Origin: Bacteroidota bacterium
GTDB taxonomy: Bacteria; Bacteroidota; Ignavibacteria; UBA10030; SZUA-254
Assembly (NCBI GenBank): GCA_049515655.1
Contig: JBEKTW010000005.1
Span: forward strand, 22,721-86,720
DNA length: 64,000 bases
Reading direction: 5' to 3'
Under the pieces are notes generated by a model. That model saw nothing but the letters and a program-made list of their open reading frames with translations, had not been told where the DNA came from and searched no databases. The position numbers and the translations under genes were made by a program. Shown here in pieces: positions 3,387-31,882 of the stretch. The first letter of the stretch is position 1, and every line of letters begins with the position of its first letter.

Positions 3387-3404
3387 TCTAGCAATTTCAA
3401 AGCA

Positions 3405-3723
3405 AGAGCATGGTACTTGGTTCTTGGTTCTTAGTTATTAGTTCTTGGTTATTTGTTATTTGTCATTAGTCACTGGTCATTTGTCATTGGTCATTGGTTC
3501 TTGCTTCTGGCTTCTAGCTTTTAGCTGTTGGCTTTTGGTTCTTAGTTGTCAGTTCGTTGTCATTGTTCATTAATCATTGGTCATTATTCACTACTACATA
3601 GCTACATAACTACTCAACTACCTAACTACTCCATCTCACCGCTTCACCCCATCTCCCCTTCATCATCTTAACTACTTAACTATTCAACCACCTAACCACT
3701 CAACTACCGAACTACCTAACTAC
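3405..3723 (-). repeat. copy 1 of a purine-rich, stop-codon-dense intergenic repeat family that fills the hslV-hslU gap in sense orientation
   Basis: The reverse complement of 3405-3723 aligns with 18293-18633 and partly with 48090-48346. Shared blocks are gtagttaggtagttgagtagttatgtagctatgtagtagtgaataatgaccaatgattaatgaacaa..., ctaagaaccaaaagccaacagctaaa and ggggtgaagcggtgag. The sense strand almost lacks C in one section and T in another. Confidence 0.8.
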
Positions 3724-4272
3724 TCAACTACTTATTTCCAAATCCTCCACCACAATATTCTTGTTCGTATAAATGCAAATCTCGCTCGCTGCCGCCAGTG
3801 ACTCCGCCACAATCTCCTTTGCCGAGAGGTCGGTATGCTTCACCAGCATCCGGGCGGCGGCCAGGGCATAACTGCCTCCCGAACCTATTGCGACAATACC
3901 GTCATCGGGCTCGATGACTTCACCGGTACCGGAGATGATGAGTGCTTGTTCTTTGTTGACGACCGCAAGGAGGGCTTCGAGATGCCGGAGGTATTTATCC
4001 GTGCGCCATGCCTTTGCCAGCTCGACCGCCGCGCGCAGCAGGTTACCGTGGTACTGCTGGAGGCGGTCTTCGAACCGCTCGAACAGCGTAAACGCGTCCG
4101 CAGCGGCGCCGGCAAATCCCGCGAGCACCGAATCGTTGTAGATCTTTCTGATTTTTCTGGCATGCTGCTTCATAATCGTCGTACCGACGGTGACCTGGCC
4201 GTCGCCGCCGATGACGGCATGCCCCTTGTGCCTCAACCCGAGAACGGTCGTTGAACGTATGATATTTGGCAT
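3724..4272 (-). CDS. hslV: ATP-dependent protease subunit HslV
   Basis: 182 aa. The N-terminal [23 protein letters not shown] matches the HslV Ntn-hydrolase signature. Confidence 0.95.
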
Positions 4273-7929: not shown

Positions 7930-9327
7930 TTAGGATGTTTTTATTAGTCTCGTGAATTGTGCTACCAGTTGCCGGGACCGCCGTTTCGACGGCGCCTCGG
8001 CAATAATACGGATGATCGGTTCGGTATTAGATTTGCGCAGGTGAACCCATGAATCGGCAAAGTCGATCTTCAGTCCGTCCCGGACGTTTACCGTTCCCTT
8101 CTTCTCATTCCTGTGCCGGATCCTGTCAAGGAGCCGGTCGACATTCTTTTTGGCGACCATTACCTTCGATTTCGTGATTACATACCGGGGCAAGGTGGCC
8201 TTCAGCTCGGACAGCGTCCCGCCAAATTCACAAAGGTGTTGCAGGATAAGTGCGATGCCGACAATCGCATCTCTCCCGTAGTGCACTGCCGGCAGGATCA
8301 CGCCTCCGCTTCCCTCGCCGCCGACAACCGCACCGACTTCCTTCATTTTCCGGGCAACATTGATCTCACCGACCGGTGTCCGGATCACCCTGGCACCGAA
8401 TTTTCCGGCAACGTCATCAACCGCGCGGGTCGTCGAGAGGTTGACGACGACGGACAGTGAACGCTTCCGGCCATTCCCGGGAAGGCGGATGGATCCTTTG
8501 TGCGCTCGAATGCGCGGGAGGATGAAATCCACGACAGAAGTGACGGTATATTCTTCACCGAATGGTTCTCCCCGTTCCGTTATCAGTACAAGCCGGTCGA
8601 CGTCGGGGTCAACGGCAATGCCGAGGTCGGCGCCCTCCGCCCGGACACGCCGGCAGAGTGCTTTGAGGTTCTCCGGAATCGGTTCGGGAGTGTGGGCGAA
8701 CACACCGCTCACGTCGCAATTCATTTCAATGACGGTGCAGCCAAGCTTCCGCAGCAGTCGGGGAACAATCATCCCGCCCGCTGCATTGACGCAATCGACG
8801 ACAACTTTGAATCCCCGTTCCCGAATTTCGCCCGCGTGCACATACGGCAGTCGTGTAACCATATCGATGTGCCTCCAGATGAAAGTATCATCCGGGGTAT
8901 GCTTTCCCATCTTATTCCACGGGCTGTAGGAGAAATTGCCGCGGTCGGCGATGGCCATGAGCCGTTTGTTCTCTGCGGCGTTGAGGAACATACCGGTTTT
9001 ACCGAGGAACTTCAGCCCGTTCCATTGCACGGGATTGTGACTGGCAGTGATGGAGATTCCCCCGTCGGCATGAAGTTGTTCGACGGCAATCTGGATAGTC
9101 GGGGTCGGCACAACGCCAAGCGCCACCACATCGCATCCCATCGAAAGGAGTGTCGAGGAAACCAGATTTCCAATGACCTTTCCTGAAATTCTCCCATCCC
9201 TTCCGATGACCACGGTCCCCCGATTGCAGTATTGCGCGAAGGCACCGGAATACTTCAGGATGACGTCGGGGGTAAGGCCGTCACCGATGACACCGCGAAC
9301 GCCCGAAATGCTGACCATCAACGACAT
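7930..9327 (-). CDS. glmM: phosphoglucosamine mutase (Bacteroidetes-type GlmM; phosphohexomutase family)
   Basis: 465 aa. N-terminus SISGVRGVIGDGLTPDVILKYSGAFAQY, active-site region TASHNP and the metal loop GIAVDPDVDR are all present. Confidence 0.85.
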   Translation of the reverse strand: MSLMVSISGVRGVIGDGLTPDVILKYSGAFAQYCNRGTVVIGRDGRISGKVIGNLVSSTLLSMGCDVVALGVVPTPTIQIAVEQLHADGGISITASHNPVQWNGLKFLGKTGMFLNAAENKRLMAIADRGNFSYSPWNKMGKHTPDDTFIWRHIDMVTRLPYVHAGEIRERGFKVVVDCVNAAGGMIVPRLLRKLGCTVIEMNCDVSGVFAHTPEPIPENLKALCRRVRAEGADLGIAVDPDVDRLVLITERGEPFGEEYTVTSVVDFILPRIRAHKGSIRLPGNGRKRSLSVVVNLSTTRAVDDVAGKFGARVIRTPVGEINVARKMKEVGAVVGGEGSGGVILPAVHYGRDAIVGIALILQHLCEFGGTLSELKATLPRYVITKSKVMVAKKNVDRLLDRIRHRNEKKGTVNVRDGLKIDFADSWVHLRKSNTEPIIRIIAEAPSKRRSRQLVAQFTRLIKTS

Positions 9328-9702
9328 GACGACGACTTTCGGGAGTAGTGGAGTATTGGATTATTGGAGTGTTGCATATTCTGCCGATAAATGTAGCAAA
9401 GATGGGCATGAGAAGCAAGAAAAGAAGGTAATTTCAGGTAGTGGATCAATTTGGTCTGCCGTTATATCTCAGACCGACATGGCAGGGGAACGACGACATT
9501 ACGTCCCCTCTTGCCGAAGGCATCTCTCGGGACGAGAGGGGACTATAGGGGTGTGTTGATGACCGATCGCATTCTGTGTATGTAAGTGAGAGTGATGTGT
9601 CATCCCCAGTTACCCACCCCGTCGACTTCGTCGACACCCCTCCAAGGAGGGGACTTCCCTTTCCCCGCAGTTCAAAGTGAGTCAGTACCGATTCTTTGGA
9701 TT

Positions 9703-9728
9703 GTTTGAAAATGAATCGGAATTTCCGT
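9703..9728 (+). repeat. left 26-bp direct repeat (att-like) bounding the 9.7-14.9 kb island
   Basis: gtttgaaaatgaatcggaatttccgt occurs exactly here and again at 14836-14861. An exact 26-mer shared by chance in 64 kb is extremely unlikely. Confidence 0.85.
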
Positions 9729-9734
9729 TTGTAG

Positions 9735-9836
9735 TTTTGCCAGAACAAGATAAAAGAATTTATTACGAAGCTGCATATACCGGGAAGTGATCCACGAATC
9801 AAGGAGTTGGAGAAAAAGCTGGGTATCAGTGATTGA
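9735..9836 (+). pseudogene. C-terminal gene remnant (...IKELEKKLGISD*) directly after the left direct repeat
   Basis: A 33-codon open frame with no start codon ends at TGA 9834-9836. Homologous remnants (...FIKELDLEEKDLLKKLGQ*) recur at about 11095-11152 and, truncated, at about 10425-10452. Confidence 0.4.
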
Positions 9837-9863
9837 ATCTGCCGAGATCGTTTCGGTTTTCAC

Positions 9864-9900
9864 AAAGCCGGGCGTTTACAGAGCACCCGGCTTTTTTATT
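9864..9900 (+). terminator. rho-independent terminator-like hairpin with a T-tract; this is cassette repeat a
   Basis: aaagccgggcgtttacagagcacccggcttttttatt has an 8-bp GC stem followed by T6. Related hairpins lie at 10456-10521 and 11181-11210. Confidence 0.6.
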
Positions 9901-9924
9901 GCACATAATTCGTCTGAGACGCCG

Positions 9925-10350
9925 TCAGGTATGAGGAAGATATTTCTTGAGTTCCGCATAGAGTTGTTTTTCGGCTGGCAGGAGGGTCACGTGCGTACTG
10001 CGAGCTATTGCTATGCTTCGGTTCGCTCCAGTTTCCCTCATGTTAACGACACGTATGTAAGACAGAGGCTGCAGAACAGTCTCTAAATCCTCAGTTTTCC
10101 AATGCAGTGCGTCGCATAGTTTTTTCTGTTGTGCTTGCTTGTTTTTGGTAATTTCAAGAGCGTCCATAATACCTGCCTCAAGACATCCTTTGGACGCGGC
10201 GTACTCCAAGAAATCTCGCTCCCGCAAAACCGATGGCTTCCCTTTTTCTACAACTGTAAACGTTGGCGGCTTATCAGATAGTACGGGTTCTGACCGACCG
10301 ACTTCAATTCCCTTCCTCTGCAGACAAATCATGATTTCGCTGAAATTCAT
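9925..10350 (-). CDS. hypothetical protein (island cassette 1)
   Basis: 141 aa ORF in the low-GC island. No family was recognised. Confidence 0.45.
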   Translation of the reverse strand: MNFSEIMICLQRKGIEVGRSEPVLSDKPPTFTVVEKGKPSVLRERDFLEYAASKGCLEAGIMDALEITKNKQAQQKKLCDALHWKTEDLETVLQPLSYIRVVNMRETGANRSIAIARSTHVTLLPAEKQLYAELKKYLPHT

Positions 10351-10424
10351 TTGCGTTCTCCTTTGTCGTTACGAGGTCTTTTCTGATTCGCTCACTATAT
10401 ATTGTGAACTGAATAAACTTACTC

Positions 10425-10530
10425 AAACAAACGGTGAAATTCAAATTCATTAAAAGGCCGGGCCAGTGATTGAATCAAACGAGGGCATTACAGTTAAAAG
10501 CCAGACGTTTTCGGCCCGGCCTTTCATTGC
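10425..10530 (+). repeat. cassette repeat b, a degenerate copy of the gene-remnant plus hairpin unit
   Basis: It carries attcaaattcattaa and cagtgattgaatc, embedded in the ggccgggcc...ggcccggcc hairpin. Confidence 0.6.
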
Positions 10531-10594
10531 GATGTTTCCTGTACTAGGATGGCTTCAACTGAGGGTCATGGTTGATTCTTCCTTAACTGTTTTC

Positions 10595-10837
10595 CTAGGT
10601 GGGGTGCAAGCACGACTGAATCAGATGAGCAAAATCATTACCGCAAGTATGCGCAACTTGCGACTTGAAATGTTTTCCGTCATCATTGAGAGTAATGGTA
10701 GCACAGATATTATCCTTACCATGTCTTTTACAAACAAGCGACGAGATTGCATCATACATCCTCTTGAGCATTGACCCCGGGGGCAATTTGTCCGCGTCAA
10801 CGACTTTGTCACAGTATGTGAGAATAAATTTAATCAT
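10595..10837 (-). CDS. small hypothetical protein (island cassette 2)
   Basis: 80 aa. Its start overlaps the stop of the upstream small membrane ORF by 4 nt (ATGA). Confidence 0.3.
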   Translation of the reverse strand: MIKFILTYCDKVVDADKLPPGSMLKRMYDAISSLVCKRHGKDNICATITLNDDGKHFKSQVAHTCGNDFAHLIQSCLHPT

Positions 10838-11067
10838 AGTGTTCCGCTTTTCTTAGAGAGATATTGTACTACCGAAGTGTATCCGGCACAACACATGAGC
10901 AATGGAAGAAATCCATCGCTAAAAGTTGTAAAGAACCAAGTTGCGATCGGATTAGCTGATACCTTATACACGACTCCCCAAAACCACATCGTGAGAACAT
11001 AAAATATCAAAAAATTTACTGCTTGTGTCGGCTTAGCAGGTGCCCATTTAGTTGGTTCTGCTTGCAC
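10834..11067 (-). CDS. small predicted membrane protein with two hydrophobic helices (island cassette 2)
   Basis: 77 aa with two hydrophobic segments (FLIFYVLTMWFWGVVY and GFLPLLMCCAGY). It is translationally coupled to the 80-aa ORF. Confidence 0.35.
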   Translation of the reverse strand: MQAEPTKWAPAKPTQAVNFLIFYVLTMWFWGVVYKVSANPIATWFFTTFSDGFLPLLMCCAGYTSVVQYLSKKSGTL

Positions 11068-11087
11068 AATATAGCGACAAGGGGTGG

Positions 11088-11213
11088 ATATTCAAATTCA
11101 TCAAGGAGTTGGACTTGGAGGAAAAGGACTTACTTAAGAAGCTGGGGCAGTGATTGAATCAATACGAGGTGGTTTCACGAAGCCGGGGGATTACAGAATG
11201 CTCGGTTTTTTAT
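11088..11213 (+). repeat. cassette repeat c (gene remnant plus hairpin)
   Basis: attcaaattcatcaaggagttgga...aagctggggcagtgattgaatc...gaagccggg...ttacag...ctcggttttttattgc is homologous to unit a at 9790-9900. Confidence 0.65.
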
Positions 11214-11244
11214 TGCGATTATTCTGACTTAGCTAAGGCCAAAA

Positions 11245-11826
11245 TCAAATACGTATCCCTTTTGATTGCACTGCCCCAATGATTGCTTTGATGTCTTCCG
11301 CGCCATAAATCGACGCATCAATTTCACGATTGAATTCTGAAACGAACATGGAGTGCAACACTTTCTCCAGTGTTTCTGTTACGTGATTGAAAAAATCAAC
11401 CTCTATATCTGCATCATACCACACTTCACTGGGATTGAATACGGCTTTCTTATCTATGTGAAAATGAGCCTTGTCTCGCACTCCCTTCAGCTTGTCTGCA
11501 AGAATGTTGATGTCCGCCAGACTCAAACCGTTCTTGACCAGTTCGTCTTCTATGCCTTTCGTGTTGCATTTGTGCAAGTAGAAGAAGGAAGCTACACGTG
11601 TGTGTAAATCCAAAACATTCATTACATGTAAGAACATCGCGTCGTGCAATGCGAAGAATGAGTACGTGAAAATAGACGCGCCCGGTTCGGGAAAGGCCGA
11701 AACATTGGGTGCTATAGTCAGTAACTCAGTAAATGCATTCCTGTAAGAAAGAGCACGACGAAGCTCATAAAGGTTACGAATGAGTGCGCGACTATATGTG
11801 CTAAGTGGCCGGTGTTGGGAAGTCAT
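11245..11826 (-). CDS. hypothetical protein with a HEPN-like R-x4-6-H motif (possible RNase toxin)
   Basis: 193 aa. RDKAHFH lies at about aa 117-123, and the protein is predicted to be helical. No confident family could be assigned. Confidence 0.45.
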   Translation of the reverse strand: MTSQHRPLSTYSRALIRNLYELRRALSYRNAFTELLTIAPNVSAFPEPGASIFTYSFFALHDAMFLHVMNVLDLHTRVASFFYLHKCNTKGIEDELVKNGLSLADINILADKLKGVRDKAHFHIDKKAVFNPSEVWYDADIEVDFFNHVTETLEKVLHSMFVSEFNREIDASIYGAEDIKAIIGAVQSKGIRI

Positions 11827-11894
11827 CTACCTCTCTTGCGAACAAAACAGTTCTTGATTCTATTTCTAATCATTCATTGTCGCCTACCTTCCGT

Positions 11895-12668
11895 TCAAAA
11901 ATCTTCCGCTATGACATCCGCGGTAATGATGCAAGTTTTCAAGATTTCTACGCTTTCATGCCTAGAATCTCTAAAGGTTCTGTCAATAAAATCAATCATT
12001 TCAGGCACTTCGGAATCATCTTTCAGAATGATGTATTTGACATCGTCGGGCGTAAAGCTTAACCTGGATTTGAGAGCTAATTGTTCTTCTGCTGTTTCCC
12101 GCTTGGCCTTGTTTAGAAAGTCCGGCTTGATGAGAAGTCTAAGTTCAGAAGGGATATCATTCGGCACCAGCCTCCACTCCCTTTCGTTGTAGAATCTAAT
12201 GTCTTCTCTGTATGCGTTTTCCCTCCACAATTTCCCCTCATAAGGTTTGACATGACTGACAAATGTGAGTACAGCATCCACTAGTTTGTCTTTCAGCTCC
12301 CTCCTGACTTCCTCCTCTTGCGGATTCGTAGCGTTCAAGTTTTCAAACAAATATTGCAGTTTGGTTTTCTTGTGGACATAGAGAACTGGTGTAACTGAAT
12401 GGTCCATTCCCCACTGTTTGGATAGACCTAATCCGTAGCTCCTATCTCCGTAAAAGTCCAGATGGCTTCTTATTAGGAACAGAGGCAAATCGCAGAAGGA
12501 AATCATAGGAATCGCAAACTCTATCGTTCCATCTTGCCAATTCTCCAAGCAGTAATGTGGTATGAAGCCCTTCGCGAGGATGCCTTTCACCTTGTCAATG
12601 GACGGTGTGAAATGGAAGAGTGTGTTGGAACTTATGTTGACGGACGTCGTTCGGTTGTAGTCTGGCAT
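11895..12668 (-). CDS. AbiGi-like abortive-infection family protein (tentative)
   Basis: 257 aa. N-terminal SNTLFHFTPSIDKVKGILAKGFIPHYCLE. The AbiGi assignment rests only on my memory of that family's N-terminal motif and on the similar size. It is not a checked alignment or database hit and could be wrong. Confidence 0.45.
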   Translation of the reverse strand: MPDYNRTTSVNISSNTLFHFTPSIDKVKGILAKGFIPHYCLENWQDGTIEFAIPMISFCDLPLFLIRSHLDFYGDRSYGLGLSKQWGMDHSVTPVLYVHKKTKLQYLFENLNATNPQEEEVRRELKDKLVDAVLTFVSHVKPYEGKLWRENAYREDIRFYNEREWRLVPNDIPSELRLLIKPDFLNKAKRETAEEQLALKSRLSFTPDDVKYIILKDDSEVPEMIDFIDRTFRDSRHESVEILKTCIITADVIAEDF

Positions 12669-12766
12669 GAAGCACTCACTTCCTCAGTCATTCTTGAATC
12701 GTCACGGCCAGCGAATTTTGTGTGTGCTGGTCGCCCTAAAGTCTGGCCAAAGTCGTCGCTACGTCG

Positions 12767-13690
12767 TTACTTAGTCTCGGTTGCACGATAAGTCTCAATT
12801 AAGAATCGCATAAGTGTGGTTGTCAAGTATATCATGTACTCCAGTTCGGAATCCGAATAGACTCGCTCATCGGCAGGCTCAAAATCGCTGTCGTGCTTAA
12901 CGGCCGTGCTCTGGTACAACGAGAACTGTGTTAGCATAGTAAAATAGTTTTGACGAATCTGAGAGTGAACTCCTTTCTCTTTCATCCATTTGAGCAGCGG
13001 CTCTTTTTGCTTCTCAATCGGAGAATTGTTTCCTAAAACAACCTTCAGAAGGTTCTCAAGTGCAAATCGTAATGAATCTAGGGCTTGGCGGTACATAGAA
13101 GCGTCTTTGGAAACCGCTATGGAGAGTGCTTTGTTATATTCTTTGACGACGTCAGGATATTTTCTGAGCCAAATAGCGTTCTCGTCCACAGCTTCATCAA
13201 GCAGTTTGATACCATCAGGATAGAGCTCCATCTTGCCATCTATGTTCTCAATGCGTCTTATATTTATTCCCGACGAACTTTCGATTGCCGTGTTCAAATT
13301 TGCTATAAGAGATTGAACGGCTGTCTTGAACTCGTCAAGTGTCTCGTAAGAGGCAGATAATTGTTCAAGTGACCAGAAAAGACGCTGCAAGACAAGAATC
13401 AGCTCACTTAGCCCTTGCGCATTTGTAAGATGTTTGATAATACCTTGTCCGATTGCAAGGTATGCTGGGTCCACGTACTCTGAGCCGTTGATTACTGCAA
13501 ACTTTCCCTCAACTGCCGCCACCAGTGACGTAGCTTCAATATCGTATATCATCTCATCAAGGTATTTCAAATCGCTCAGAAAACTACCGACGGCCGTTGA
13601 CACTCTATTACGAAATTCTGAAAATAGCTTCTCTTTTGGGATGACTATTCCCCATCTTTGCATGAAATCATTGGTTGGTGTCTTGCTCAT
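12767..13690 (-). CDS. hypothetical protein, predicted helical, upstream partner of the AbiGi-like gene
   Basis: 307 aa ORF that reads convincingly as coding within the AT-richer island. No family was recognised. Confidence 0.55.
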   Translation of the reverse strand: MSKTPTNDFMQRWGIVIPKEKLFSEFRNRVSTAVGSFLSDLKYLDEMIYDIEATSLVAAVEGKFAVINGSEYVDPAYLAIGQGIIKHLTNAQGLSELILVLQRLFWSLEQLSASYETLDEFKTAVQSLIANLNTAIESSSGINIRRIENIDGKMELYPDGIKLLDEAVDENAIWLRKYPDVVKEYNKALSIAVSKDASMYRQALDSLRFALENLLKVVLGNNSPIEKQKEPLLKWMKEKGVHSQIRQNYFTMLTQFSLYQSTAVKHDSDFEPADERVYSDSELEYMIYLTTTLMRFLIETYRATETK

Positions 13691-13869
13691 GATAAGTCTG
13701 CCGATTCCCGTGCCTTTAATTGTACTTGGCGAATATACAAAAGATTTTGTCCCGTGTCAACAAAGTCTAAATCTATTTTTCTGGCTCGCTCATTGTTTTT
13801 CTTCAATATGAATGAGTAAACTTACCGAAAAAGACAAACATCGTAGCTTTTCGGTGTTATGTGCCGCGA

Positions 13870-14562
13870 TTATTTCTTGTTCAAACCTGTTTGCTGTTTA
13901 ACCGCTGGCGTGTCCGCTTTTATTCTTTCTGGATTTAGCACAAGCACTCTTGTTGTGTCACGAAAAGCGTTCATATTCGTAATGAGCACATCTCTCTGAG
14001 TTTTGTAGGTGACAAATTGGAAAAAACCCATCAAGAGACTTACAACAATTGATACAACAGCAATCCGAAATGTCAATTGTTGGGCTTGTTTTCTATCGGC
14101 CGCCTCTTGTTTTCTGTCCGCGGCGTCTTGAGCAAAGCGCTGTTCATCTAAGGTTAAGAAGCCACGGTCAACAAAATCAGATAACTCTGGTAGAGGGGCG
14201 ACATAAAATCCATCGTAAGACCGGATTATCCCCATGATTTCATGTTCCGCGTCGTTCTGACTAGCAAATATAGGTAAGAGGCGCACGCCCTTACTTGCCC
14301 TGCGTAACCTTGTTACAAGCCCTTCTCGTTCTAATCGTGACCAAAGTGATATGAATTCAGTAAGCTCTGAAATAGTTTTGTCACGATTCTTAGGAATATA
14401 ACCGGTTGTCTTAGGGTCACAAACCAAATCCCATCCAGGATAAGATTGCTGGAGGATGAAACGTTCAAAGTCACCGAACTGCAAGAGAAATTTTTCAGTG
14501 TCAGTTGCTTTGTTTTGCAGCCAGGCTCGTACAATCTCTTGTTGAATACTACTCAGTTTCAT
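13870..14562 (-). CDS. hypothetical protein with a single C-terminal transmembrane helix
   Basis: 230 aa. The C-terminal IAVVSIVVSLLMGFFQFV is hydrophobic and is preceded by a charged Lys/Gln-rich linker (DRKQEAADRKQ). Confidence 0.5.
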   Translation of the reverse strand: MKLSSIQQEIVRAWLQNKATDTEKFLLQFGDFERFILQQSYPGWDLVCDPKTTGYIPKNRDKTISELTEFISLWSRLEREGLVTRLRRASKGVRLLPIFASQNDAEHEIMGIIRSYDGFYVAPLPELSDFVDRGFLTLDEQRFAQDAADRKQEAADRKQAQQLTFRIAVVSIVVSLLMGFFQFVTYKTQRDVLITNMNAFRDTTRVLVLNPERIKADTPAVKQQTGLNKK

Positions 14563-14835
14563 ATCGCTTTACTCCATGTTGTGCTGAGCAAACTTACCCA
14601 AACACGCTGTAAATATCAAGTCCACTTGTAATTCTGACCAATCGCGTTCTGAGCTTAGACCGAGGAATGCGTTTCGTGTTTGGGCAGGCAGAAAACAATA
14701 AACCCGTTCAGAGACCTCCTTCCTGTTCCCAAACAGGCCTTATTGCTCAAAACACTGTAGGACAAAATGTAGGATGATTCGCACAAATCCTGCAATTTCC
14801 CGCATTGCAGTCGTTCAAGAGTGCTTTCCCATACC

Positions 14836-14861
14836 GTTTGAAAATGAATCGGAATTTCCGT
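14836..14861 (+). repeat. right 26-bp direct repeat (att-like) bounding the island
   Basis: Exact copy of 9703-9728. Confidence 0.85.
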
Positions 14862-14885
14862 AAGTTTCTGTCGAGCATATCAATA

Positions 14886-15464
14886 ATGGATACTGATTCC
14901 ATGCTATCCAAATCTGAAAAGCAGTTCTTACTCGAGATTGCCCGGGCGTCCGTGGGCGCTGCAGTGAGACTCGAGACCGCGCCAAAGCGCGGCGATTGCC
15001 CTCCGGTGATTCTACGGCCGAGCGGCGCGTTCGTCACGCTGCACGAAAAAGGTGAATTGCGTGGATGCATCGGGTATATCGAAGCCATCAAGCCGATGAT
15101 CGATACCGTGCGCGAGGTTGCGGCCAAGGCGGCAACATCAGACCCCCGCTTCGCTCCCGTCACCCCCGAGGAACTGCCGATTCTCGAGATCGAGATTTCC
15201 GTAATCTCTCCAATGAAACGAATCCAGAACATCGACGAGATTGAGGTCGGCAAGCACGGATTGCTCCTCGAGCGAGGGATGTACCGCGGCCTCCTGCTGC
15301 CGCAGGTGGCGACAGAATACGGTTGGGACAGGGAAACCTTTCTCAATCAGACGGCGAGGAAGGCCGGCCTGGAGCCGACGGCATGGAAGAAACCCGGAAC
15401 GACGATATACACCTTTACCGCTGAAATTTTTGGTGAGCGCTCTATGGACTCACAACATTCATAA
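14886..15464 (+). CDS. AMMECR1 domain protein (AmmeMemoRadiSam system protein A-like)
   Basis: The AMMECR1 core VTLHEKGELRGCIGYIEA is present. The true start is taken as the ATG at 14886 because the longer ORF-track start would run through the direct repeat. Confidence 0.8.
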   Translation: MDTDSMLSKSEKQFLLEIARASVGAAVRLETAPKRGDCPPVILRPSGAFVTLHEKGELRGCIGYIEAIKPMIDTVREVAAKAATSDPRFAPVTPEELPILEIEISVISPMKRIQNIDEIEVGKHGLLLERGMYRGLLLPQVATEYGWDRETFLNQTARKAGLEPTAWKKPGTTIYTFTAEIFGERSMDSQHS

Positions 15465-18292: not shown

Positions 18293-18635
18293 GTACGTTG
18301 GTAGTTAGATAGTTGAATAGTTATGTAGCTATGTAGTAGTGAATAATGACCAATGATTAATGAACAATTACAACGAACTGACAACTAAGAACCAAAAGCC
18401 AACAGCTAAAGGCTAGAAGCCAGAAGTCAGAATCCAGAAGCAAGAAGCCAAGAGCTAATGGCCAACAGCTAAAAGCTAATAGCTCAAGGCCATAACCAGG
18501 AACAAATGACAAAGAACCAATAACTAATAAGCTAAAAGCTAAAGGCCAACAGCTAATGGCTAAAGGCTCGATGCCAGAACCAACGACGAATGACCAATGA
18601 CAAATGACTAATGACCAACAACCAACAATCAGGCA
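18293..18635 (+). repeat. copy 2 of the purine-rich intergenic repeat family, running from the stop codon to the start codon
   Basis: See copy 1. It ends ...caaccaacaatcaggcaATGacc, where the ATG is the start codon of the next gene at 18636. Confidence 0.8.
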
Positions 18636-19418
18636 ATGACCTATTCGACCTTACTCGTGAAAGTCACCGACCGTATCGCAGTTGTGACTGTCAACCGTCC
18701 CGACAAGCTGAACGCCCTGAACGCCCAGTGCAAGAACGAGCTCAGGGACCTCTTCATGTCGCTCAAGACCAATCACGACGTTGATGCGGTCATCCTGACA
18801 GGCGCCGGCGAGAAGTCGTTTGTCGCGGGAACCGACATCAGCGAATTGGCAACTCTCAATGCCGAAACCGGGAAAGAGTTTGCCAGCGGAGGGCAATCCC
18901 TCTTCGACCTCATCCAGCATCTTGGAAAACCGGTCATCGCCGCCGTGAACGGCTACGCCCTGGGCGGCGGCTGCGAGCTCGCGCTGGCTTGTCATATGAG
19001 AATCGCATCGGAGAACGCGAAGTTCGGCCAGCCGGAGGTGAGTCTTGGGATCATCCCGGGCTACGGGGGAACGCAGCGGCTTTCGCGGCTTGTCGGTTCC
19101 GGCAAGGCGGCGGAGTTGATTCTCACAGGAAACCAAATCGATGCTCAGGAAGCCCTGCGCATCGGACTAGTCAACAGAGTTGTTCCGCAAAAAGAATTGC
19201 TCGCGGCGGCCGAAGCCATCGCACGGACAATCACGAGCAAAGGTCAGATCGCAATTCGTATCGCGCTGAAAGCCATCAACGCGAGCATGGAAATGCCGCT
19301 CAGCGAGGGCCTGAAGGTCGAAGCTTCACTTTTCGGCGACTGCTGCAGCACGCAAGACGCCAAAGAGGGTGTGAAAGCCTTCCTTGAAAAACGAAAGCCG
19401 GAGTTTAAAGGGAAATGA
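18636..19418 (+). CDS. enoyl-CoA hydratase/isomerase (crotonase family)
   Basis: AAVNGYALGGGCELALACHMRIAS is the crotonase oxyanion-hole motif. 260 aa. Confidence 0.85.
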   Translation: MTYSTLLVKVTDRIAVVTVNRPDKLNALNAQCKNELRDLFMSLKTNHDVDAVILTGAGEKSFVAGTDISELATLNAETGKEFASGGQSLFDLIQHLGKPVIAAVNGYALGGGCELALACHMRIASENAKFGQPEVSLGIIPGYGGTQRLSRLVGSGKAAELILTGNQIDAQEALRIGLVNRVVPQKELLAAAEAIARTITSKGQIAIRIALKAINASMEMPLSEGLKVEASLFGDCCSTQDAKEGVKAFLEKRKPEFKGK

Positions 19419-25213: not shown

Positions 25214-28200
25214 ATGGAGGAAACGATGAGAAGAATTTTGTTGGTAGTCTTGACGGCAGCAACACTTGCCAGCGCTCAACAGCGCGTGCTTGTATCCTCG
25301 AACAACGAAGTCGTTCCCTTGAAGAACGGTGAAGGTGCACTCGAAGCCGTAAAACGATATACCCAACACAAGAAGTTATTTCACACCTCTCAGACCGGAT
25401 GCAGTGATACATCGTCATACGGCTTCTCTCCCAATAATTATCCGCCGATGGATTTATTATATGCCTATCACAAAGACATGTTGGCGGAATGGCTGATTGC
25501 CCCGGCGGACGGCATTATCGATTCAGTATATCTTCTCACGGGTTCTCCAGTTCCCCACGATTCCACATTGTACTTGCGAATAATGGAGTCTCGCATCTAT
25601 CCTGGAAGCGGACCGGGCTACGGCGAGTTCGCGCCAAATTTGCCCGGGGCGTGCAATGATTCAGTCGGACCTTGGGGATGCGACTTTTGCCCCCTCCCCT
25701 GGGGATACTTCACGAACACCAATGACCTGGATGGTCAGGAGAACAACCCACCAACGTGGGGTATCGGTGGAGTAGCTGCGTTCGTGGAGGATGCAACCCC
25801 TCCAGATTCAACGGCGTGGGTCTCAACCTTGCAAAGATCCTATCCGCATGCGCCGGTAACGTTTCCTCCAACGGTTGATGAAATCTGGGGAATTGGAGGA
25901 CATTCCGTCCGTATCAGGCCAAATAGCGTGAACGTCTTTAACTTGCATTCCCTTGGCGCACCCTCGCTGCACACAGGCCAGCCACTCATGATTGTACTTG
26001 AGATAAGGGGCTATTGCAATGAATGGTTGGATGATTGTGAGAATGATCCATATCGAACAGGTGTTGCAGCTAATGCTGCCTCTTTCGATTCGCACGTACA
26101 CTACCATACGCACTTTTGGAAGTTCTATGAGCACGGTCTCGCCTGTGGATTTCCGGGCTGGACGGACCGCGGGAGTTATGAACTTCTTCTTTGGTATTCG
26201 ATGACATTGACAGGCAATGTACCTCCACGAATTGTCGACATGACCACATTGCCAGCGACTCTGGGAGCGAAGGCACAGACGTTCGCCGCTGATATCGAAG
26301 ACTGCAATATTGCAGATCCTGCCAGTGCCGGTGTTGTGTCGGCAAGCCTTAGCTACTCTGTCGATAACGGACCTTACACAACCGTCCCTATGACTAATCA
26401 GGGCGGAATAACATGGCAAGCAACGATCCCACCGGTTCCTCCGACTAATGGTCGCCCTTATTCCCGGACAGTGAACTATTTCATCTCGGCAGCAGATTCT
26501 CAAGGGCTAACGATGGATACCATTTATCATAATTACAAAGTCCTGTCGTTCGGCGATGAATGGTATTATCCCGACACCACGATTGCATACAATCCGGTTG
26601 TCGTCAAAGGTAACGGCGGCATTGAAATAGATCCTTCGATCTTCTTCGAGCCGCCGTATCCTGGCGCCGGGACACATCCCAAAGACGACGGCACCGCGGG
26701 TCCGTTTGACCTCGGCGGACAGTTCATCTACTTCGGCGACACAGTGCGATACGCCTGGGTCGGCGTGAACGGCGGCATCGCACTTTCACGTTCACCAACA
26801 GACACGATCGACGTCAATGCAAATGGATCGTTCTCCAGTGGAATTCCATGGAATATCCCTTCTCCACAGCATAAAGGCCGCGCAGATATTGCCGGCGCAA
26901 CGAATAGTCCAAGAAATTTCATCGCACCGGACTGGCAGGACTTCATCCTGGCAGATTCAGCGCGACAGTACGGTCATATCTTATATCGGACAGATAGCTG
27001 CCGGTTCATTGTCGAATATGACTCGATAGGAATCGGGGGAATTACGCCCGCGGCGAGCAACACTACGTTCCGGGTGATTCTCAACCGATGCGACGGAACG
27101 ATCGAATTCCAGTACGACAGTGTCGGAGCATTCAATGCAAATTCCATGTGTGTGGTTGGACTCCAAGGCGATTCCCTCCTGGGACATAATCCCGGTTATC
27201 TACTGCTTTCCCGTTGGGCGTTTGCCGATTTCGGTCCAGTTGAATGGACTCCACGCAACAATCGCTCAGTGCGTTTGTATCCCACAGTTGGCGCGGCGGT
27301 AGCAGGCGGATGGAATTTGGTGTCCGTGCCGGTGATTCCCCCCGGAAATGACTACGACGTATCCTTTCTCTTCCCGGGAGCGATCTTATATCCATTCAGG
27401 TACTATGGCGGATACAAACGAGACAGCATACTTTCAAACGGCGTAGGATATTGGATGAAGTTCAGCAGAGGCAACGTCCTTGCAATGCCCGGACGCCTGC
27501 TGTACGCATTCGATGATAGTGTGAAGGTGGACTGGAACATGATCGGAGCGATCGGGAAATCTGTTGCGACGGGCGCTGTGGTTCAGGATCCGGCGAACCT
27601 TGTATCGTCTAATTACTTCGGTTACAACCACGGGTACTTTATCGCGACATCAATCGACCCGGGCAAGGGATATTGGGTGAAATCACGGGGGACGGGTGTG
27701 CTGCACCTGACAGCCAGCTCGATACCGAAGTCGTCTTCGGCACTTGCAGATCTGACGGTGCTCAACAGGATCACGGTGACCGACGCGGAAAAGAACCAGC
27801 AGCCGTTGTACGTTGGCAGTGAGAGCGACCTGAAGGTGCCGGCAAGCATGTATGAGATGCCTCCGGTAGCGCCGGGAGGGATATTCGATGTACGGTTCGC
27901 GTCGCAGCGGATGGTAGAGACGTATCCGGACAAGCTACAAGGCGGGAAAGTTTATGAGTTCCCGATCAGTATTCAGACGAATGCGTATCCTGTGACGGTT
28001 CAGTGGCAGATACAGAACACGAACGGTCGGACGCTGACGTTGACGGACGGGCTCAGCGGACGGATTGTGAACAACGCGGCGTTGACGAACAGCGGATCGA
28101 TCAAGATAATGAACCCGAGCGTGAAGTCGTTGGTGCTGAAGCTGGTGGAAGGCCGAACGGTGCCGAAAGAGTTCGCATTGAGTCAGAACTATCCTAATCC

Positions 28201-28453
28201 ATTCAATCCGACAACCAATTTCGAATTTCGGATTGCCAATTTCGGATTTGTTTCGCTCAAGGTGTATGACGTGCTGGGCAGAGAGGTATGCACGCTGGTG
28301 AATGAGGCCAAGCAGCCGGGCGAGTATACCGTGGAGTGGAATGCGGAAGGCATAGCGAGCGGCGTATATTTCTACCGTCTCACTGCTGGCAATCCTTCGG
28401 CAAGCTCAGGACGCGGATTCACAGACGTCAAGAAGATATTGCTCTTGAAGTGA
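25214..28453 (+). CDS. large secreted protein with a T9SS C-terminal sorting domain (paralog A)
   Basis: The C-terminus LSQNYPNPFNPTT...KVYDVLGREV...GVYFYRL is a Por_Secre_tail-type CTD, and there is an N-terminal signal peptide. The start may be the second ATG (MRRILL), which is preceded by GGAGGA. Confidence 0.85.
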   Translation: MEETMRRILLVVLTAATLASAQQRVLVSSNNEVVPLKNGEGALEAVKRYTQHKKLFHTSQTGCSDTSSYGFSPNNYPPMDLLYAYHKDMLAEWLIAPADGIIDSVYLLTGSPVPHDSTLYLRIMESRIYPGSGPGYGEFAPNLPGACNDSVGPWGCDFCPLPWGYFTNTNDLDGQENNPPTWGIGGVAAFVEDATPPDSTAWVSTLQRSYPHAPVTFPPTVDEIWGIGGHSVRIRPNSVNVFNLHSLGAPSLHTGQPLMIVLEIRGYCNEWLDDCENDPYRTGVAANAASFDSHVHYHTHFWKFYEHGLACGFPGWTDRGSYELLLWYSMTLTGNVPPRIVDMTTLPATLGAKAQTFAADIEDCNIADPASAGVVSASLSYSVDNGPYTTVPMTNQGGITWQATIPPVPPTNGRPYSRTVNYFISAADSQGLTMDTIYHNYKVLSFGDEWYYPDTTIAYNPVVVKGNGGIEIDPSIFFEPPYPGAGTHPKDDGTAGPFDLGGQFIYFGDTVRYAWVGVNGGIALSRSPTDTIDVNANGSFSSGIPWNIPSPQHKGRADIAGATNSPRNFIAPDWQDFILADSARQYGHILYRTDSCRFIVEYDSIGIGGITPAASNTTFRVILNRCDGTIEFQYDSVGAFNANSMCVVGLQGDSLLGHNPGYLLLSRWAFADFGPVEWTPRNNRSVRLYPTVGAAVAGGWNLVSVPVIPPGNDYDVSFLFPGAILYPFRYYGGYKRDSILSNGVGYWMKFSRGNVLAMPGRLLYAFDDSVKVDWNMIGAIGKSVATGAVVQDPANLVSSNYFGYNHGYFIATSIDPGKGYWVKSRGTGVLHLTASSIPKSSSALADLTVLNRITVTDAEKNQQPLYVGSESDLKVPASMYEMPPVAPGGIFDVRFASQRMVETYPDKLQGGKVYEFPISIQTNAYPVTVQWQIQNTNGRTLTLTDGLSGRIVNNAALTNSGSIKIMNPSVKSLVLKLVEGRTVPKEFALSQNYPNPFNPTTNFEFRIANFGFVSLKVYDVLGREVCTLVNEAKQPGEYTVEWNAEGIASGVYFYRLTAGNPSASSGRGFTDVKKILLLK

Positions 28454-28609: not shown

Positions 28610-31600
28610 ATGGAGGAAACGATGAGAAGAATTTTGTTAGTAGTCTTGACGGCAGTAACACTTGCCAGCGCCCAGAAGCGGGTGCTTATATCCTCGAACA
28701 ATGACGTCGTTCCCTTAAAACCTGGGGAGAACGCAGTGCAGGCCTTGCAAAATCTCGCGAAGGAACGAGGGCTGATGAAAATCTCCGAGACCTCGTGTGC
28801 GAACCCGATCGGTTTTGGCTACAGCGTAGATCCTCCGCCACCAACTGGCGCGTGGACATCTTTGCACAAGGATATATTTGGAATATGGTTCCAGGCACCT
28901 TGCGATGGAGTGATAGATACGCTCTATACATGGAACGACGGATGGATGAACTCTGACTCGGCCCTCATCCTTCGGTTAATGGAATCCCGCATTTACAATG
29001 GCAGCGGACCGGGCTATGGGAAATTTGCAGCTTATCTGCCTGGGTATAATTTTGTCGGGGATCCTCCCATGTATATAAACACTCCGCTGTGCTGGGGATA
29101 CTTCACGGATACAAACGACCTGGATGGTCAGGGGTACAACCCGGGTATCGGCGGAGTGACTGCGTTCGCCGATGATGCTACACCGCCTGACTCAACGGCC
29201 TGGGTCTCGACACTGCAAAGACAGTTTCCGGGAGCGCCGACCACATTCTCAGCGATGGGAGATGAAATCTGGGGACTCGGCGGCTACCCGTTCAGACACC
29301 TTAAGGCTGGTGCAATTAACAAATTCAATCTACATCTCATAGGTGCACCCAGCGTTCACGCGGGTCAACCGATTTATATTGCGTTTATTGTCCCCGGCAT
29401 ACATCCCGTTATTGAGGAGGAGGTTCCGACAAGTATTTTCAGGAACGACGTTCCTCCCGACCCTAATGGTTTCTACCATACTCATACATGGAAATTCTAT
29501 GAGCACAATGGCACCTGCGGCATTCCAGGATGGACCGACCGCGGCAGTTTCGAAACATACATTTGGTACTCGATGACGGTAACTGGCGACGTCCCTCCGC
29601 GCCTAATGTACATGACCAACCTTGGAGCCACATTGGGCGGATCACCGCGCGACATCACGGTCAATCTGGAGGACTGCAACTTCGACAATCCTGCCAGCGC
29701 GGGAGTTGCGTGGGCACATCTGGGATATTCCGTCGACGGTGGGCCGTTCGCGATAGTCCCTTTGAACTATGCCGGCGGGACAACATGGAACCGTCAGATC
29801 CCGGCTGTCGCACCGACGACCGGCCGACCGTATTCACGCACCGTCCAGTATTATGTTGCGGCAGCCGATTCCCAGGGATTAGCTATGGATAGCGGCGCTG
29901 TGCATTCGTACAAAGTCGTTTCGTTCGGTAATGAGTTTTATTATCCTGATACGTCGGTCGCCTGCATTCCTCAGATCATCAAGGACACACCGGGCAGTCA
30001 TTATCTCGACACAACGAGCACGCTGGGCAGCAGCCCGCACCCCACCTGGTTCTCGCCTCCGTACCGGGATGCAGCGAAAGCTCCCGGGAACGACGGGACC
30101 GCAGGACCGATCTCGCTCGGCGGACCGTTCATCTACTTTGGAGATACGGTAAATTACGCGTGGATCGGAGTGAACGGCGCGATGGCACTTTCGAAAACTG
30201 CAACGGACACGATCGATGTGAACTCAAACGGATCGTATGCCGACTATGACTTCCCGGATGCAGAGCATCTCGGTCGCGGAGATACGGCGGGCAGAAGCAA
30301 CATACCGAGGAACTTCATAGGGACGTTGTGGTATGACCTCGTCTATGTCGATGACGCTAATGTGCAGTATGGACGCATTTTCACTAAGAGCGACAGCTGC
30401 CGGTTCATCGCAGAATATGATTCCATCGGAGAACTGTATGAACCATGGGCGGCATTCATCCCGAGCAACACGACGTTCCGTACGGTTTTGAATAAATGCG
30501 ATGGGACGATCGAGATGCAGTGGGATAATGTCCAGGAAGCAATCGCACTGGATACTGTTTCGACCGTTGCTTTCGTGGGTGATTCGGGAAGGATCATCCG
30601 TCCCGATTCCTTGCGAACTCAGGTGGGACATAACCCGGGATGGCTGAAGTTCTATCGTGGTTCGAATTACGGTCCGATAAATCTCCGCCCCCGGGACGGT
30701 CGGTGTGTCCGGTTCCGTCCGACCGCGGGTACGGTGGTGGCGGCCGGCTGGAATATGGTGTCGGTGCCAACCCACCCGCCGGGCGACAATTATGGGCGGA
30801 CCTATCTGTACCCGAATGCGACCTCCCCAGCGTTCAGTCATCACGGTTATTATCGTCAAGACACAACGCTGGCACCGGGCGTTGGATACTGGCTGAAGTT
30901 CCCTGCGGCGAATGGGTATGCGACACCAGGCCCGCCTGTGTTCAGCGGAGTCGACAGCGTAAAGATGGATTGGAACATGGTGGGAGCGATCGGGAAACCG
31001 GTTGCGACGGGCGCTGTGGTTCAGGATCCGGCGAACCTTGTATCGTCTAATTACTTCGGTTACAACCACGGGTACTTTATCGCGACATCGCTCGACCCGG
31101 GCAAGGGCTACTGGGTGAAGTCGAGGGGGACGGGTGTGCTGCACCTGGCGGCCAGCTCGATACCGAAGTCGTCTTCGGCACCTGCGGATCTGACGGTGCT
31201 CAACAGGATCACGGTGACCGACGCGGAAAAGAACCAGCAGTCGTTGTACATCGGCAGTGAGAGCGACCTGAAGGCACCCGCGAGCATGTATGAGATGCCT
31301 CCGGTAGCACCGGCAGGGATATTCGATGTGCGATTCTCGTCGCAGCGGATGGTAGAGACGTATCCGGACAAGCTAGAAGGCGGGAAGGTTTACGAGTTCC
31401 CGATGAGTATTCAGACGAATGCGTACCCTGTGACGGTTCAGTGGGATGTAAAGAACACGAACGGTCGGACGCTGACGTTGACGGACGGGCTCGGCGGACG
31501 AATAGTAAACAATGCGGTGTTGACGAGCAGCGGATCGATCCGTATAACGAACGCGAGTGTGAAGTCGTTGGTGCTGAAGCTGGTCGAAGGGCGACCGGTG

Positions 31601-31882
31601 CCCAAGGAATATGCGTTGAGCCAGAACTATCCGAACCCATTCAATCCTACTACGGTTATCCGCTATCAGTTACCGGTAAATAGTGTTGTGACTCTGAAGG
31701 TGTACAATATTCTCGGACAAGAGGTAGCGGGGCTTGTGAATGGAATGGAAGATGCGGGGTTCAAGTCAGTGGAGTTTGACGGGAGGAGTGAAAACGGGAG
31801 CATGCTACCAAGCGGTGTCTATTTTTACAGGATTCAAGCTGCCGGGTTCATTGCCGTCAGGAAGATGCTCCTGCTCCGGTAG
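28610..31882 (+). CDS. large secreted protein with a T9SS C-terminal sorting domain (paralog B)
   Basis: Its N-terminus matches paralog A. About 680 bp (30981-31655) is roughly 93% identical to 27541-28215. Its own CTD is divergent (NPFNPTTVIRYQL...GVYFYRIQAAG). Confidence 0.85.
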   Translation: MEETMRRILLVVLTAVTLASAQKRVLISSNNDVVPLKPGENAVQALQNLAKERGLMKISETSCANPIGFGYSVDPPPPTGAWTSLHKDIFGIWFQAPCDGVIDTLYTWNDGWMNSDSALILRLMESRIYNGSGPGYGKFAAYLPGYNFVGDPPMYINTPLCWGYFTDTNDLDGQGYNPGIGGVTAFADDATPPDSTAWVSTLQRQFPGAPTTFSAMGDEIWGLGGYPFRHLKAGAINKFNLHLIGAPSVHAGQPIYIAFIVPGIHPVIEEEVPTSIFRNDVPPDPNGFYHTHTWKFYEHNGTCGIPGWTDRGSFETYIWYSMTVTGDVPPRLMYMTNLGATLGGSPRDITVNLEDCNFDNPASAGVAWAHLGYSVDGGPFAIVPLNYAGGTTWNRQIPAVAPTTGRPYSRTVQYYVAAADSQGLAMDSGAVHSYKVVSFGNEFYYPDTSVACIPQIIKDTPGSHYLDTTSTLGSSPHPTWFSPPYRDAAKAPGNDGTAGPISLGGPFIYFGDTVNYAWIGVNGAMALSKTATDTIDVNSNGSYADYDFPDAEHLGRGDTAGRSNIPRNFIGTLWYDLVYVDDANVQYGRIFTKSDSCRFIAEYDSIGELYEPWAAFIPSNTTFRTVLNKCDGTIEMQWDNVQEAIALDTVSTVAFVGDSGRIIRPDSLRTQVGHNPGWLKFYRGSNYGPINLRPRDGRCVRFRPTAGTVVAAGWNMVSVPTHPPGDNYGRTYLYPNATSPAFSHHGYYRQDTTLAPGVGYWLKFPAANGYATPGPPVFSGVDSVKMDWNMVGAIGKPVATGAVVQDPANLVSSNYFGYNHGYFIATSLDPGKGYWVKSRGTGVLHLAASSIPKSSSAPADLTVLNRITVTDAEKNQQSLYIGSESDLKAPASMYEMPPVAPAGIFDVRFSSQRMVETYPDKLEGGKVYEFPMSIQTNAYPVTVQWDVKNTNGRTLTLTDGLGGRIVNNAVLTSSGSIRITNASVKSLVLKLVEGRPVPKEYALSQNYPNPFNPTTVIRYQLPVNSVVTLKVYNILGQEVAGLVNGMEDAGFKSVEFDGRSENGSMLPSGVYFYRIQAAGFIAVRKMLLLR

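Follow-up and report, generated by a model that had tools for sequence, protein, structure and literature searches.

A low-GC island between the glmM-like and AMMECR1 genes

The window analysed in the present study is a 64-kb stretch of contig JBEKTW010000005.1 (contig positions 22,721–86,720) from an uncultured lineage of the phylum Bacteroidota, sampled in JGI metagenome 3300038425; coordinates below are window positions unless a related locus is named. Between a glmM-like gene of the phosphoglucosamine/phosphoglucomutase family (7930–9327, minus strand), which forms the conserved left flank, and the gene of AMMECR1 (AmmeMemoRadiSam system protein A; 14901–15464, plus strand), which forms the conserved right flank, lies an island of 5.1 kb (9729–14835), bracketed by the perfect 26-bp direct repeat GTTTGAAAATGAATCGGAATTTCCGT at 9703–9728 and 14836–14861; no such repeat occurred in 100 shuffled sequences. 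The island contains seven cargo open reading frames (ORFs), all on the minus strand and separated by very short spacers, which are split by junctions into four blocks; the guanine-cytosine (GC) content of all modules is uniformly 0.42–0.46 vs. 0.53–0.57 around the island and 0.56–0.57 for the flanking genes. An earlier note on this DNA had pointed to three degenerate repeat units, a, b and c, in the left part of the island and had read them as regenerated gene ends or as joints of an integron-like cassette array; the 26-bp repeat was not reported there. The units are real and related, but they do not qualify as integron attC sites, and no gene remnant could be demonstrated in them.

Junction units a to d

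Units a, b and c are present at the positions reported earlier and can be aligned with one another. The earlier note had considered that they might share nothing beyond short motifs; a core of ~95 nt aligns, with identities of 73% (a/c), 66% (a/b) and 72% (c/b). The 13-mer CAGTGATTGAATC has three exact sites in the window, one per unit, and no additional site there even at two mismatches, while ~0.002 exact matches would be expected by chance according to our arithmetic. Since the units align and CAGTGATTGAATC is unique to them, they are homologous copies and not chance motifs. The peptides quoted for units a and c were also found in the sequence. The limits of the units were revised to 9801–9912 for unit a (with a left extension, a-ext, at 9729–9800 on the plus strand), 10415–10545 for unit b and ~11060–11225 for unit c. 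Each unit lies 3' of a block of minus-strand ORFs, as had been stated; unit a adjoins ORF141 and unit b the ORF77/ORF80 pair, and the description of the block as one ORF or a pair does not hold for unit c, which adjoins a block of three genes (PDC-S32-like, AbiGi and ORF193).

Two elements can be distinguished in the units, a hairpin-containing element Y and a shorter motif X to its left. Beyond the three units of the earlier note, a fourth, strongly decayed junction d (13818–13869) and an X-only copy were found; junction d comprises motif X (AAACTTACCGAAAAAGAC..., nhmmer E-value 6e-8), followed only by the Y tail GCCGCGATTATTTCT, the counterpart of which in unit c is TTGCGATTATTCT.

Joined to unit a, the extension a-ext gives the frame FCQNKIKEFITKLHIPGSDPRIKELEKKLGISD, ending in a stop codon, which is separated by a TAG at 9732 from an ATG at 9711 inside the left copy of the 26-bp repeat. 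This copy, a-ext and unit a together are 90.6% identical over 203 nt to positions 8610–8812 of L001, the same locus in a related metagenomic lineage. At positions 8619–8741, L001 has an intact ORF of 40 codons, MNRNFRLSFCQNKIKELISKLDIPGRDPRIKELEKKLAITD, which runs from an ATG inside its internal copy of the repeat to just before the Y hairpin; it is the window counterpart of this ORF that is broken by the TAG at 9732. The possibility that a-ext is a hidden copy of motif X was rejected, the similarity being not significant.

The hairpin element Y

Element Y begins with CAAGGAGTTGGA in units a and c and continues in the order AAGCTGGG, CAGTGATTGAATC, CGAG, AAGCCGGG and CCCGGCTTTTTTATTGCGA. In plus-strand RNA folds of all three units, AAAAAGCUGGGU pairs with ACCCGGCUUUUU, or their equivalents do, closing a segment of ~60 nt; the stem of 11–13 bp is preceded by an A-run on its 5' side and followed by a T-run on its 3' side. 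In unit a, Y (9801–9912, plus strand) forms a stem of 13 pairs between 9812–9824 and 9885–9897, followed by T6, with the 13-mer at 9827–9839; the minimum free energy of the RNA is −30.7 kcal/mol (z-score −2.1), and an alternative short GC hairpin pairs 9867–9872 with 9886–9891. In unit b, Y (10451–10545, plus strand) has a perfect 12-bp stem (10453–10464 with 10513–10524) and the 13-mer at 10464–10476; its T-run is degraded to CCTTTC, and its folding z-scores were −3.0 and −2.9 in one test and −3.1 and −5.1 in another. In unit c, Y (11102–11225, plus strand) starts with CAAGGAGTTGGA, bears an in-frame insertion of 21 nt relative to unit a and has the 13-mer at 11148–11160; its stem (11136–11146 with 11201–11211, then T6) survives only through three G·U pairs, possible on the plus strand alone, where the folding energy is −18.5 kcal/mol, compared with −5.9 kcal/mol (z-score +1.7, i.e., no fold) on the minus strand. 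Thus, the strong hairpin ascribed earlier to units a and c is confirmed for unit a and extends to unit b, and unit c folds no better than shuffled sequences. A stem followed by T6 is found in unit a and in L001, and the stem of unit c is weak; in the Y element of L001, the long-stem pairing appears in the centroid structure only, and the minimum-energy fold differs.

Unguided RNAalifold prediction gave the same stem of ten pairs; unit b has G-C in place of A-U at one of them, which is a compensatory change, and four other changes affect one side only. The sole non-pair, A-C, is at the outermost position in unit b. Inspection by hand indicated a second double change at the pair just inside this position, where L001 has C-G and units a, b and c have G-C. 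The stem, the adjoining runs and the modelled folds suggest that Y may act as a bidirectional intrinsic terminator. It resembles bidirectional Rho-independent terminators in its GC-rich stem between an A-run and a T-run and in pairing maintained by compensatory changes, but differs from them in that the stem encloses an unusually large interior of ~60 nt with the invariant CAGTGATTGAATC. This 13-mer is part of the palindrome TGATTGAATCA inside the hairpin and is more conserved than the stem, which hints at an additional, sequence-specific role for it.

The promoter-like motif X

The second motif, X, begins with AAACTTACYSAAA, was found at 10415, 13818 and 14590, and is ~36 nt long; on the minus strand, it reads TTGA(T/A)(A/T), 17 nt and TAAGTT(T), i.e., TTGAWW-N17-TAAGTT. 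It immediately precedes the next cargo ORF on the minus strand, and each of the four cargo blocks in the window has an X on its start side. The X of unit b (10415–10450, minus strand; nhmmer E-value 1e-11) faces ORF141, with a −35 box TTGAAT (reverse complement of 10439–10444), 17 nt and a −10 box TAAGTT (reverse complement of 10416–10421). The X of unit c (11060–11101, minus strand; nhmmer E-value 1e-7) is diverged, and a promoter scan placed TTGAAT-N16-TATATT at 11095–11068. The right-edge X (14590–14625, minus strand) has TTGATA (reverse complement of 14614–14619), 17 nt and TAAGTT (reverse complement of 14591–14596), and it delimits the variable part on the right in the window, in L001 and in another related locus, L003; the cargo to its left is unrelated among the three. 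Judging by this consensus, X may represent a minimal minus-strand promoter that would drive the cargo on its left.

Searches of the window and the related loci with nhmmer profiles of X and Y recovered all expected copies and nothing more; X-like and Y-like sequences noticed by eye in two other related loci (L069 and L067), in the left part of L001 and in the middle of L003 received no nhmmer support and were discarded. In L001, the cargo ORF211 is preceded by a promoter sequence close to the sigma-70-type consensus (TTGACA-16-TATATT, TG upstream; 8373–8400, minus strand), which suggests that standard −35/−10 promoters may function either in this lineage or in the source of the cargo.

The flanking repeat and the AMMECR1 upstream region

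The left direct repeat (DR-L, 9703–9728, plus strand) holds the 11-bp palindrome CGGAATTTCCG. The sequence to the left of DR-L is unrelated to the AMMECR1 upstream region (p = 0.4), so that its interpretation as a diverged copy of this region was rejected. The right direct repeat (DR-R, 14836–14861, plus strand) comprises a −35 box TTGAAA (14838–14843), a 17-nt spacer and the first T of a −10 box TAAGTT (14861–14866), and thus appears to overlap the putative promoter of AMMECR1. It ends 40 nt upstream of the likely start of this gene at 14901 (MLSKSEKQ...); relatives start at the equivalent Met. DR-R is 100% identical in L001, L003 and L067, while the surrounding non-coding DNA is 86–88% identical; the AMMECR1 upstream region (14626–14835, plus strand) is conserved at 86–88% in L001 and L003. 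This region also shows an operator-like layout at 14755–14794, consisting of a TGTAGGA direct repeat and then the inverted pair TGTAGGATG (14768–14776), N9 and AATCCTGCA (14786–14794); the layout is conserved in L001 (9850–9900), L003 (9848–9900) and L067 (70–110), as well as in the internal promoter copy of L001.

The arrangement is of the attL/attR type insofar as an identical direct repeat is found at both ends of the island and one copy lies in a conserved target; no cognate integrase was found within or beside the island. The earlier statement that the window has no integrase was borne out, since no IntI or other recombinase was found in the 64 kb. No recombinase domain was detected by Pfam, PADLOC, NCBIfam or PHROG in the seven island ORFs, nor by Pfam in these ORFs and 20 further ones, nor in the precomputed Pfam table for 4.9–25.4 kb. 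A transfer RNA (tRNA) or transfer-messenger RNA gene as the target was dismissed, ARAGORN having found none, and Rfam gave no match at the gathering score, with three chance-level matches (E-values up to 5), none of them within a unit.

The locus in related genomes

The same spot has the glmM-like gene on one side and the AMMECR1-Memo operon on the other in all close relatives; some of the AMMECR1 homologues retrieved bear Ignavibacteriae labels. In L001, L002, L035 and L036 (AMMECR1 identity 88%), the spot is occupied by five unrelated ORFs; in L003 (84%), by a BNR-repeat gene and ORF215; in contig P0004 (74%), by HipBA; and in L069 (1–1452; JGI 3300038424), the AMMECR1 of which belongs to the 90% protein cluster of the window, by two minus-strand ORFs, one of them a BNR-like gene and the other ORF109. 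In L064 and L065 (66%), there is no insert and the flanking genes are ~125 bp apart; these genomes are too distant to keep the 26-bp sequence, and all closer relatives are occupied. Because the contents between the conserved flanks differ in each relative, the spot between glmM and AMMECR1 is hypervariable. Two Logan contigs of a close strain, L067 (1–213) and L068 (1–177), end ~150–210 bp before AMMECR1, inside its upstream region, the pattern to be expected from assemblies that break where strains vary in sequence.

The L001 locus contains two tandem cargo blocks around a full-length joint, composed of a partial X, a copy of the promoter segment, the repeat, the extension and Y. Its second copy of the 26-bp repeat matches at 25 of 26 positions; this internal repeat is preceded by ~135 bp of AMMECR1-upstream sequence, 83% identical to the right-hand copy in L001, and is followed by a-ext and the Y element. 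In units b and c, X is directly followed by Y, i.e., the order is that of the L001 joint without its middle. The Y of L001 is 83% identical to that of unit a and 78% identical to that of unit c, and shares with the latter a 27-nt segment at 96%.

Outside the window, a copy of Y was found only at this same locus in the L001 lineage. The pattern TGATTGAATCN{2,5}CGAGN{8,25}AAGCCRG gave 29 matches in a genome collection of 596 Gb, all of them attributable to chance on inspection; a stricter pattern found two contigs only in the JGI metagenome set, both from the L001 organism. Scans of IMG/VR viral sequences for Y and for the 26-bp repeat gave chance matches or none, and a blastn search with 9703–11250 against plasmids and phages gave no match. 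A repetitive extragenic palindromic (REP) sequence, a bacterial interspersed mosaic element or another dispersed repeat family was therefore rejected, as no copy was found outside the island in the 64 kb or in the collections scanned. Membership in a known attC or REP family, which the earlier note had named as an alternative, finds no backing: attC boxes are absent and there are no dispersed copies.

Cargo genes and other features of the window

Counting from the right, the first cargo block is the orphan ORF230 (13870–14562, minus strand; 230 aa), whose product has a C-terminal hydrophobic stretch as judged by eye. The second block (11245–13690, minus strand) comprises ORF193 (11245–11826), a gene of the AbiGi family (11895–12668; Pfam AbiGi 6.6e-30, PADLOC AbiGi 2.5e-46) and a PDC-S32-like gene (12767–13690; PADLOC PDC-S32 1.7e-28). 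The third (10595–11067, minus strand) consists of the overlapping ORF80 (10595–10837; 80 aa) and ORF77 (10834–11067; 77 aa), the product of the latter being apparently hydrophobic, again by eye; the fourth is the orphan ORF141 (9925–10350, minus strand; 141 aa), the sole database match of which is itself. Searches against Pfam, PADLOC, NCBIfam and PHROG revealed no family for ORF230, ORF80, ORF77 or ORF141. Two of the seven cargo genes are thus assigned by sequence similarity to recognisable anti-phage types, and the others are orphans. A search for contigs with ORF230 or ORF193 found only the same two contigs, with the same gene order.

Upstream of the glmM-like gene, a GC-rich stretch laden with hairpins (9480–9680), including CCCCTCCAAGGAGGGG at 9637–9652, is partly conserved in L003 (7540–7730) and absent from L001; it has no Rfam match and could be a structured leader or a small RNA. 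Elsewhere in the window, intergenic degenerate arrays with a period of 7/14 nt (8 nt in one of them), e.g., CTAAAGGCCAACAGCTAATGG, occupy three separate places (3403–3750, 18345–18640 and 48206–48325) in both orientations. A second low-GC patch (49999–51410) contains four to five copies of a ~107-nt repeat, 69–86% identical, which surround an ORF6N-domain gene (50515–51030) just upstream of an ORF of 1108 aa. Adjacent paralogues of ~1080 aa (25214–28453 and 28610–31882) include DNA stretches that are 72–92% identical, and the first of them, as called in L004, shows a weak Por_Secre_tail match.

Origin of the junctions

The preferred interpretation, to which a probability of roughly 45% is assigned, is that the units are joints between terminator-cargo-promoter modules that accreted serially, without an integrase of their own, in the promoter region of the AMMECR1 operon. 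A module would enter the 26-bp site in the AMMECR1 promoter and bring its own copy of the promoter segment, so that expression of AMMECR1 would be retained and the 26-bp repeat would be left at both ends. The stacking of modules would produce an internal joint of X, promoter copy, repeat, extension and Y, as is observed in L001; the loss of its functionless middle of ~330 bp would then yield the fused X/Y joints b and c, and further loss of Y would yield junction d. In such an array, Y would close the minus-strand cargo unit on its right and block plus-strand read-through, and X would drive the next cargo. Two candidates for the insertion agent can be proposed, a trans-acting recombinase that would use the 26-bp core with its palindrome CGGAATTTCCG, or RecA-dependent integration by a single crossover through promoter homology, which would leave a long duplication of the type found in L001. 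The alternating layout of ORFs and repeats and the serial insertions proposed in the earlier note are compatible with all of this; its readings of the repeats as attC sites or as gene 3' ends fail or find no support, as detailed below.

Several observations weigh against serial accretion. No recombinase was found in the 64 kb or identified anywhere, and modules down to 1.3 kb carry no mobility genes and have no demonstrated route of movement. The repeat is confined to two lineages, and neither movement nor a population variant that had gained or lost a single module was seen; the covariation of Y comes from four sequences, and Y likewise occurs in two lineages only. The roles of promoter and terminator are read from a consensus and from folding. 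A simple terminator scan did not list the units, the loop being longer than 8 nt, and the strict Bacteroidota promoter pattern TTTG-N18-22-TANNTTTG has three matches in the window and none in the island; it is because this pattern is so rare in the window that X is termed merely promoter-like. L069, a near-conspecific strain, has another allele, without the repeat, X or Y, and its homology to the window resumes at ~14872, ~10 nt past the repeat; therefore, not all turnover at this spot uses the 26-bp site. Finally, units b and c share an identical left breakpoint, immediately after ATTCAAATTCAT, which would be unexpected from two independent deletions and better fits a defined recombination point or a single ancestral X/Y joint.

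The shared breakpoint is among the observations that speak for an integron-like system with a new type of site, in which circles of Y, cargo and X, closed by an X/Y joint, would be inserted by a recombinase encoded elsewhere; taken as a whole, this alternative appears unlikely. Its primary site would lie between a-ext (P) and the sequence to the right of X (Q), with the crossover right after TYCAY, the end of X. X ends sharply against five right-hand partners (Y of unit c, Y of unit b, and Q of the window, L001 and L003), but the sharp end could also be the edge of a selected promoter; P and the window X share a terminal TCCAC (chance ~0.03 by our estimate), but P is otherwise unrelated to X. 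The a/c and c/J1 similarities overlap by no more than 2 nt, as in crossovers of serine recombinases, the cargo is compact, co-oriented, low in GC and mostly orphan, and the Y of L001 is almost equally close to those of units c and a, as if drawn from a shared pool; the rAID-1 arrays of Bacteroidales, with their repetitive intergenic sequences, provide a precedent. However, such a system would leave the 26-bp flanking repeat and the 160-bp duplication of L001 unexplained, the 64 kb contain no recombinase, and no further X or Y was found in the 596 Gb of genomes, the JGI metagenomes, IMG/VR, plasmids or phages.

Another unlikely alternative is that, without any dedicated mechanism of insertion, homologous recombination through the flanking genes refills a hot spot, with joints that arose by local duplication or unequal crossing-over of one terminator/promoter pair and subsequent replacement of the cargo. 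It agrees with the conserved glmM and AMMECR1 flanks around wholly different contents in six lineages and with the breakpoint of L069 away from the repeat, and the segment shared by the Y of L001 and unit c suggests exchange among copies. However, the joints are 66–78% identical and hence are not recent duplicates, each is located between unrelated cargo, which is beyond duplication alone, and site specificity is suggested by the perfect 26-bp repeat, which is sharply bounded on either side and has an identical right end in L001.

A bolder conjecture, held to be distinctly improbable, is that the island exemplifies an undescribed cassette system of uncultured Bacteroidota, in which cassettes bring their own X and Y and a recombinase acting in trans inserts them next to TYCAY, possibly with a 2-nt crossover, producing self-insulated defence arrays where a housekeeping operon has its promoter; in that case, CAGTGATTGAATC would be a putative site for the recombinase or an accessory protein. 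Short terminal inverted repeats, a dif-like site and a common core "ATCAAG" were also considered and set aside, being within chance as judged by eye from few sequences.

The proposal of the earlier note, that each unit is a regenerated C-terminal coding part with a terminator, left by serial integrations into a target gene, is very improbable and close to refuted. It draws on open frames in units a and c that stop just before the hairpin and on their length difference of 21 nt, which is in frame. However, a phmmer search with the 33-aa peptide against 1.84 billion representative proteins found no relative, within the power that so short a query allows, and no full-length gene ending in KELEKKLGISD, for which the earlier note had suggested a search, came to light there. 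Upstream of unit a there is no plus-strand gene; the TAG precedes its frame, the leader ATG is the start of the frame in L001, and a frame is lacking altogether in unit b. Six to seven of the eight nucleotide differences between unit a and L001 change an amino acid, so that no purifying selection is shown, and the two differences in the stem mutually compensate base pairing, not coding. The sequence copied in the flanking repeat belongs to the 5' side of the downstream gene, being a segment of its promoter, and is not the 3' end of any gene. The "C-terminal peptides" are proposed to be a by-product of a leader ATG reading into the module end rather than a gene remnant.

A canonical cluster of integron attC sites without an integrase (CALIN in the terminology of IntegronFinder), as the compact co-oriented ORFs, each followed by an imperfect repeat of 95–125 nt with a hairpin, had suggested, can almost certainly be dismissed: R''/R' boxes are absent from both strands (no RYYYAAC...GTTRRRY pairs 50–150 nt apart in 9650–14900 vs. 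1.3 in shuffled sequences), the joint ends lie outside the hairpin and there is no end-to-end fold, since only Y folds, X is unpaired and unit c does no better than shuffles, the promoter-like motif of X is not a feature of attC, and the window has no IntI.

Relation to known systems and significance

In general appearance, the island is similar to integron arrays and CALINs, with compact, co-oriented, low-GC and mostly orphan ORFs, each followed by a related hairpin repeat of ~100 nt, an array that abuts a divergent promoter region and, as in CALINs, no integrase nearby. To our knowledge, no IntI has been described for this lineage. Unlike integrons, the island has neither the R''/L''/L'/R' architecture nor a GTTRRRY box, its repeat appears to consist of a promoter and a terminator, and a 26-bp direct repeat encloses the array as a whole.

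The rAID-1 (recombinase-associated acquired interbacterial defence) arrays of Bacteroidales contain repetitive intergenic sequences that were called reminiscent of integrons; rAID-1 clusters include immunity genes and retain, at one end, a conserved recombinase of the XerD family (bioRxiv 10.1101/471110). By description, the island is like them in its host group at the level of the phylum, its small accessory genes, its skewed GC content and its repetitive intergenic motifs, but it lacks a recombinase, and its two recognisable cargo genes are of anti-phage types (AbiGi and PDC-S32). The island thus resembles integron and rAID-1 arrays, yet it lacks what defines them, with no attC structure and no recombinase.

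Integrase-less elements flanked by att sites are known to accrete in tandem, as exemplified by the cis-mobilizable elements of streptococci and by arrays of remnants beside tRNA genes. The island shares with these the attachment direct repeats at the ends and between stacked elements (L001 being the stacked form), a content of cargo only, without an integrase, and the restoration of the target function by a copy that the element would bring. It differs in that the target is a promoter, on the 5' side of a gene, and not a tRNA or a gene 3' end, and in that the modules are just 0.5–2.6 kb and the internal att copies would have been lost from the window. Minimal mobile elements of Neisseria occupy hot spots between conserved genes and are exchanged by flanking homologous recombination; similarly, the present locus has the same conserved gene pair, unrelated inserts in each strain and an empty site, while minimal mobile elements have neither internal repeated joints nor a flanking att-like repeat.

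Anti-phage and accessory genes cluster in a few chromosomal hot spots, and the route by which such spots are filled is mostly unknown where an integrase is lacking. The locus described here offers an orderly array without an integrase, in which recurring promoter-like and terminator-like sequences enclose every cargo block, and it has been caught in several states, namely empty, as a two-block stack with a full-length joint between the blocks, and as a four-block array in which the joints are fused. Should the joints prove to be recombination sites, the principle of the integron would be extended to a new type of site in a poorly studied phylum. If they are decayed ends of elements, the island would illustrate clearly how a stack of elements holding nothing but cargo can collapse into a lookalike of a cassette array, which would also call for caution with automated "integron-like" calls.

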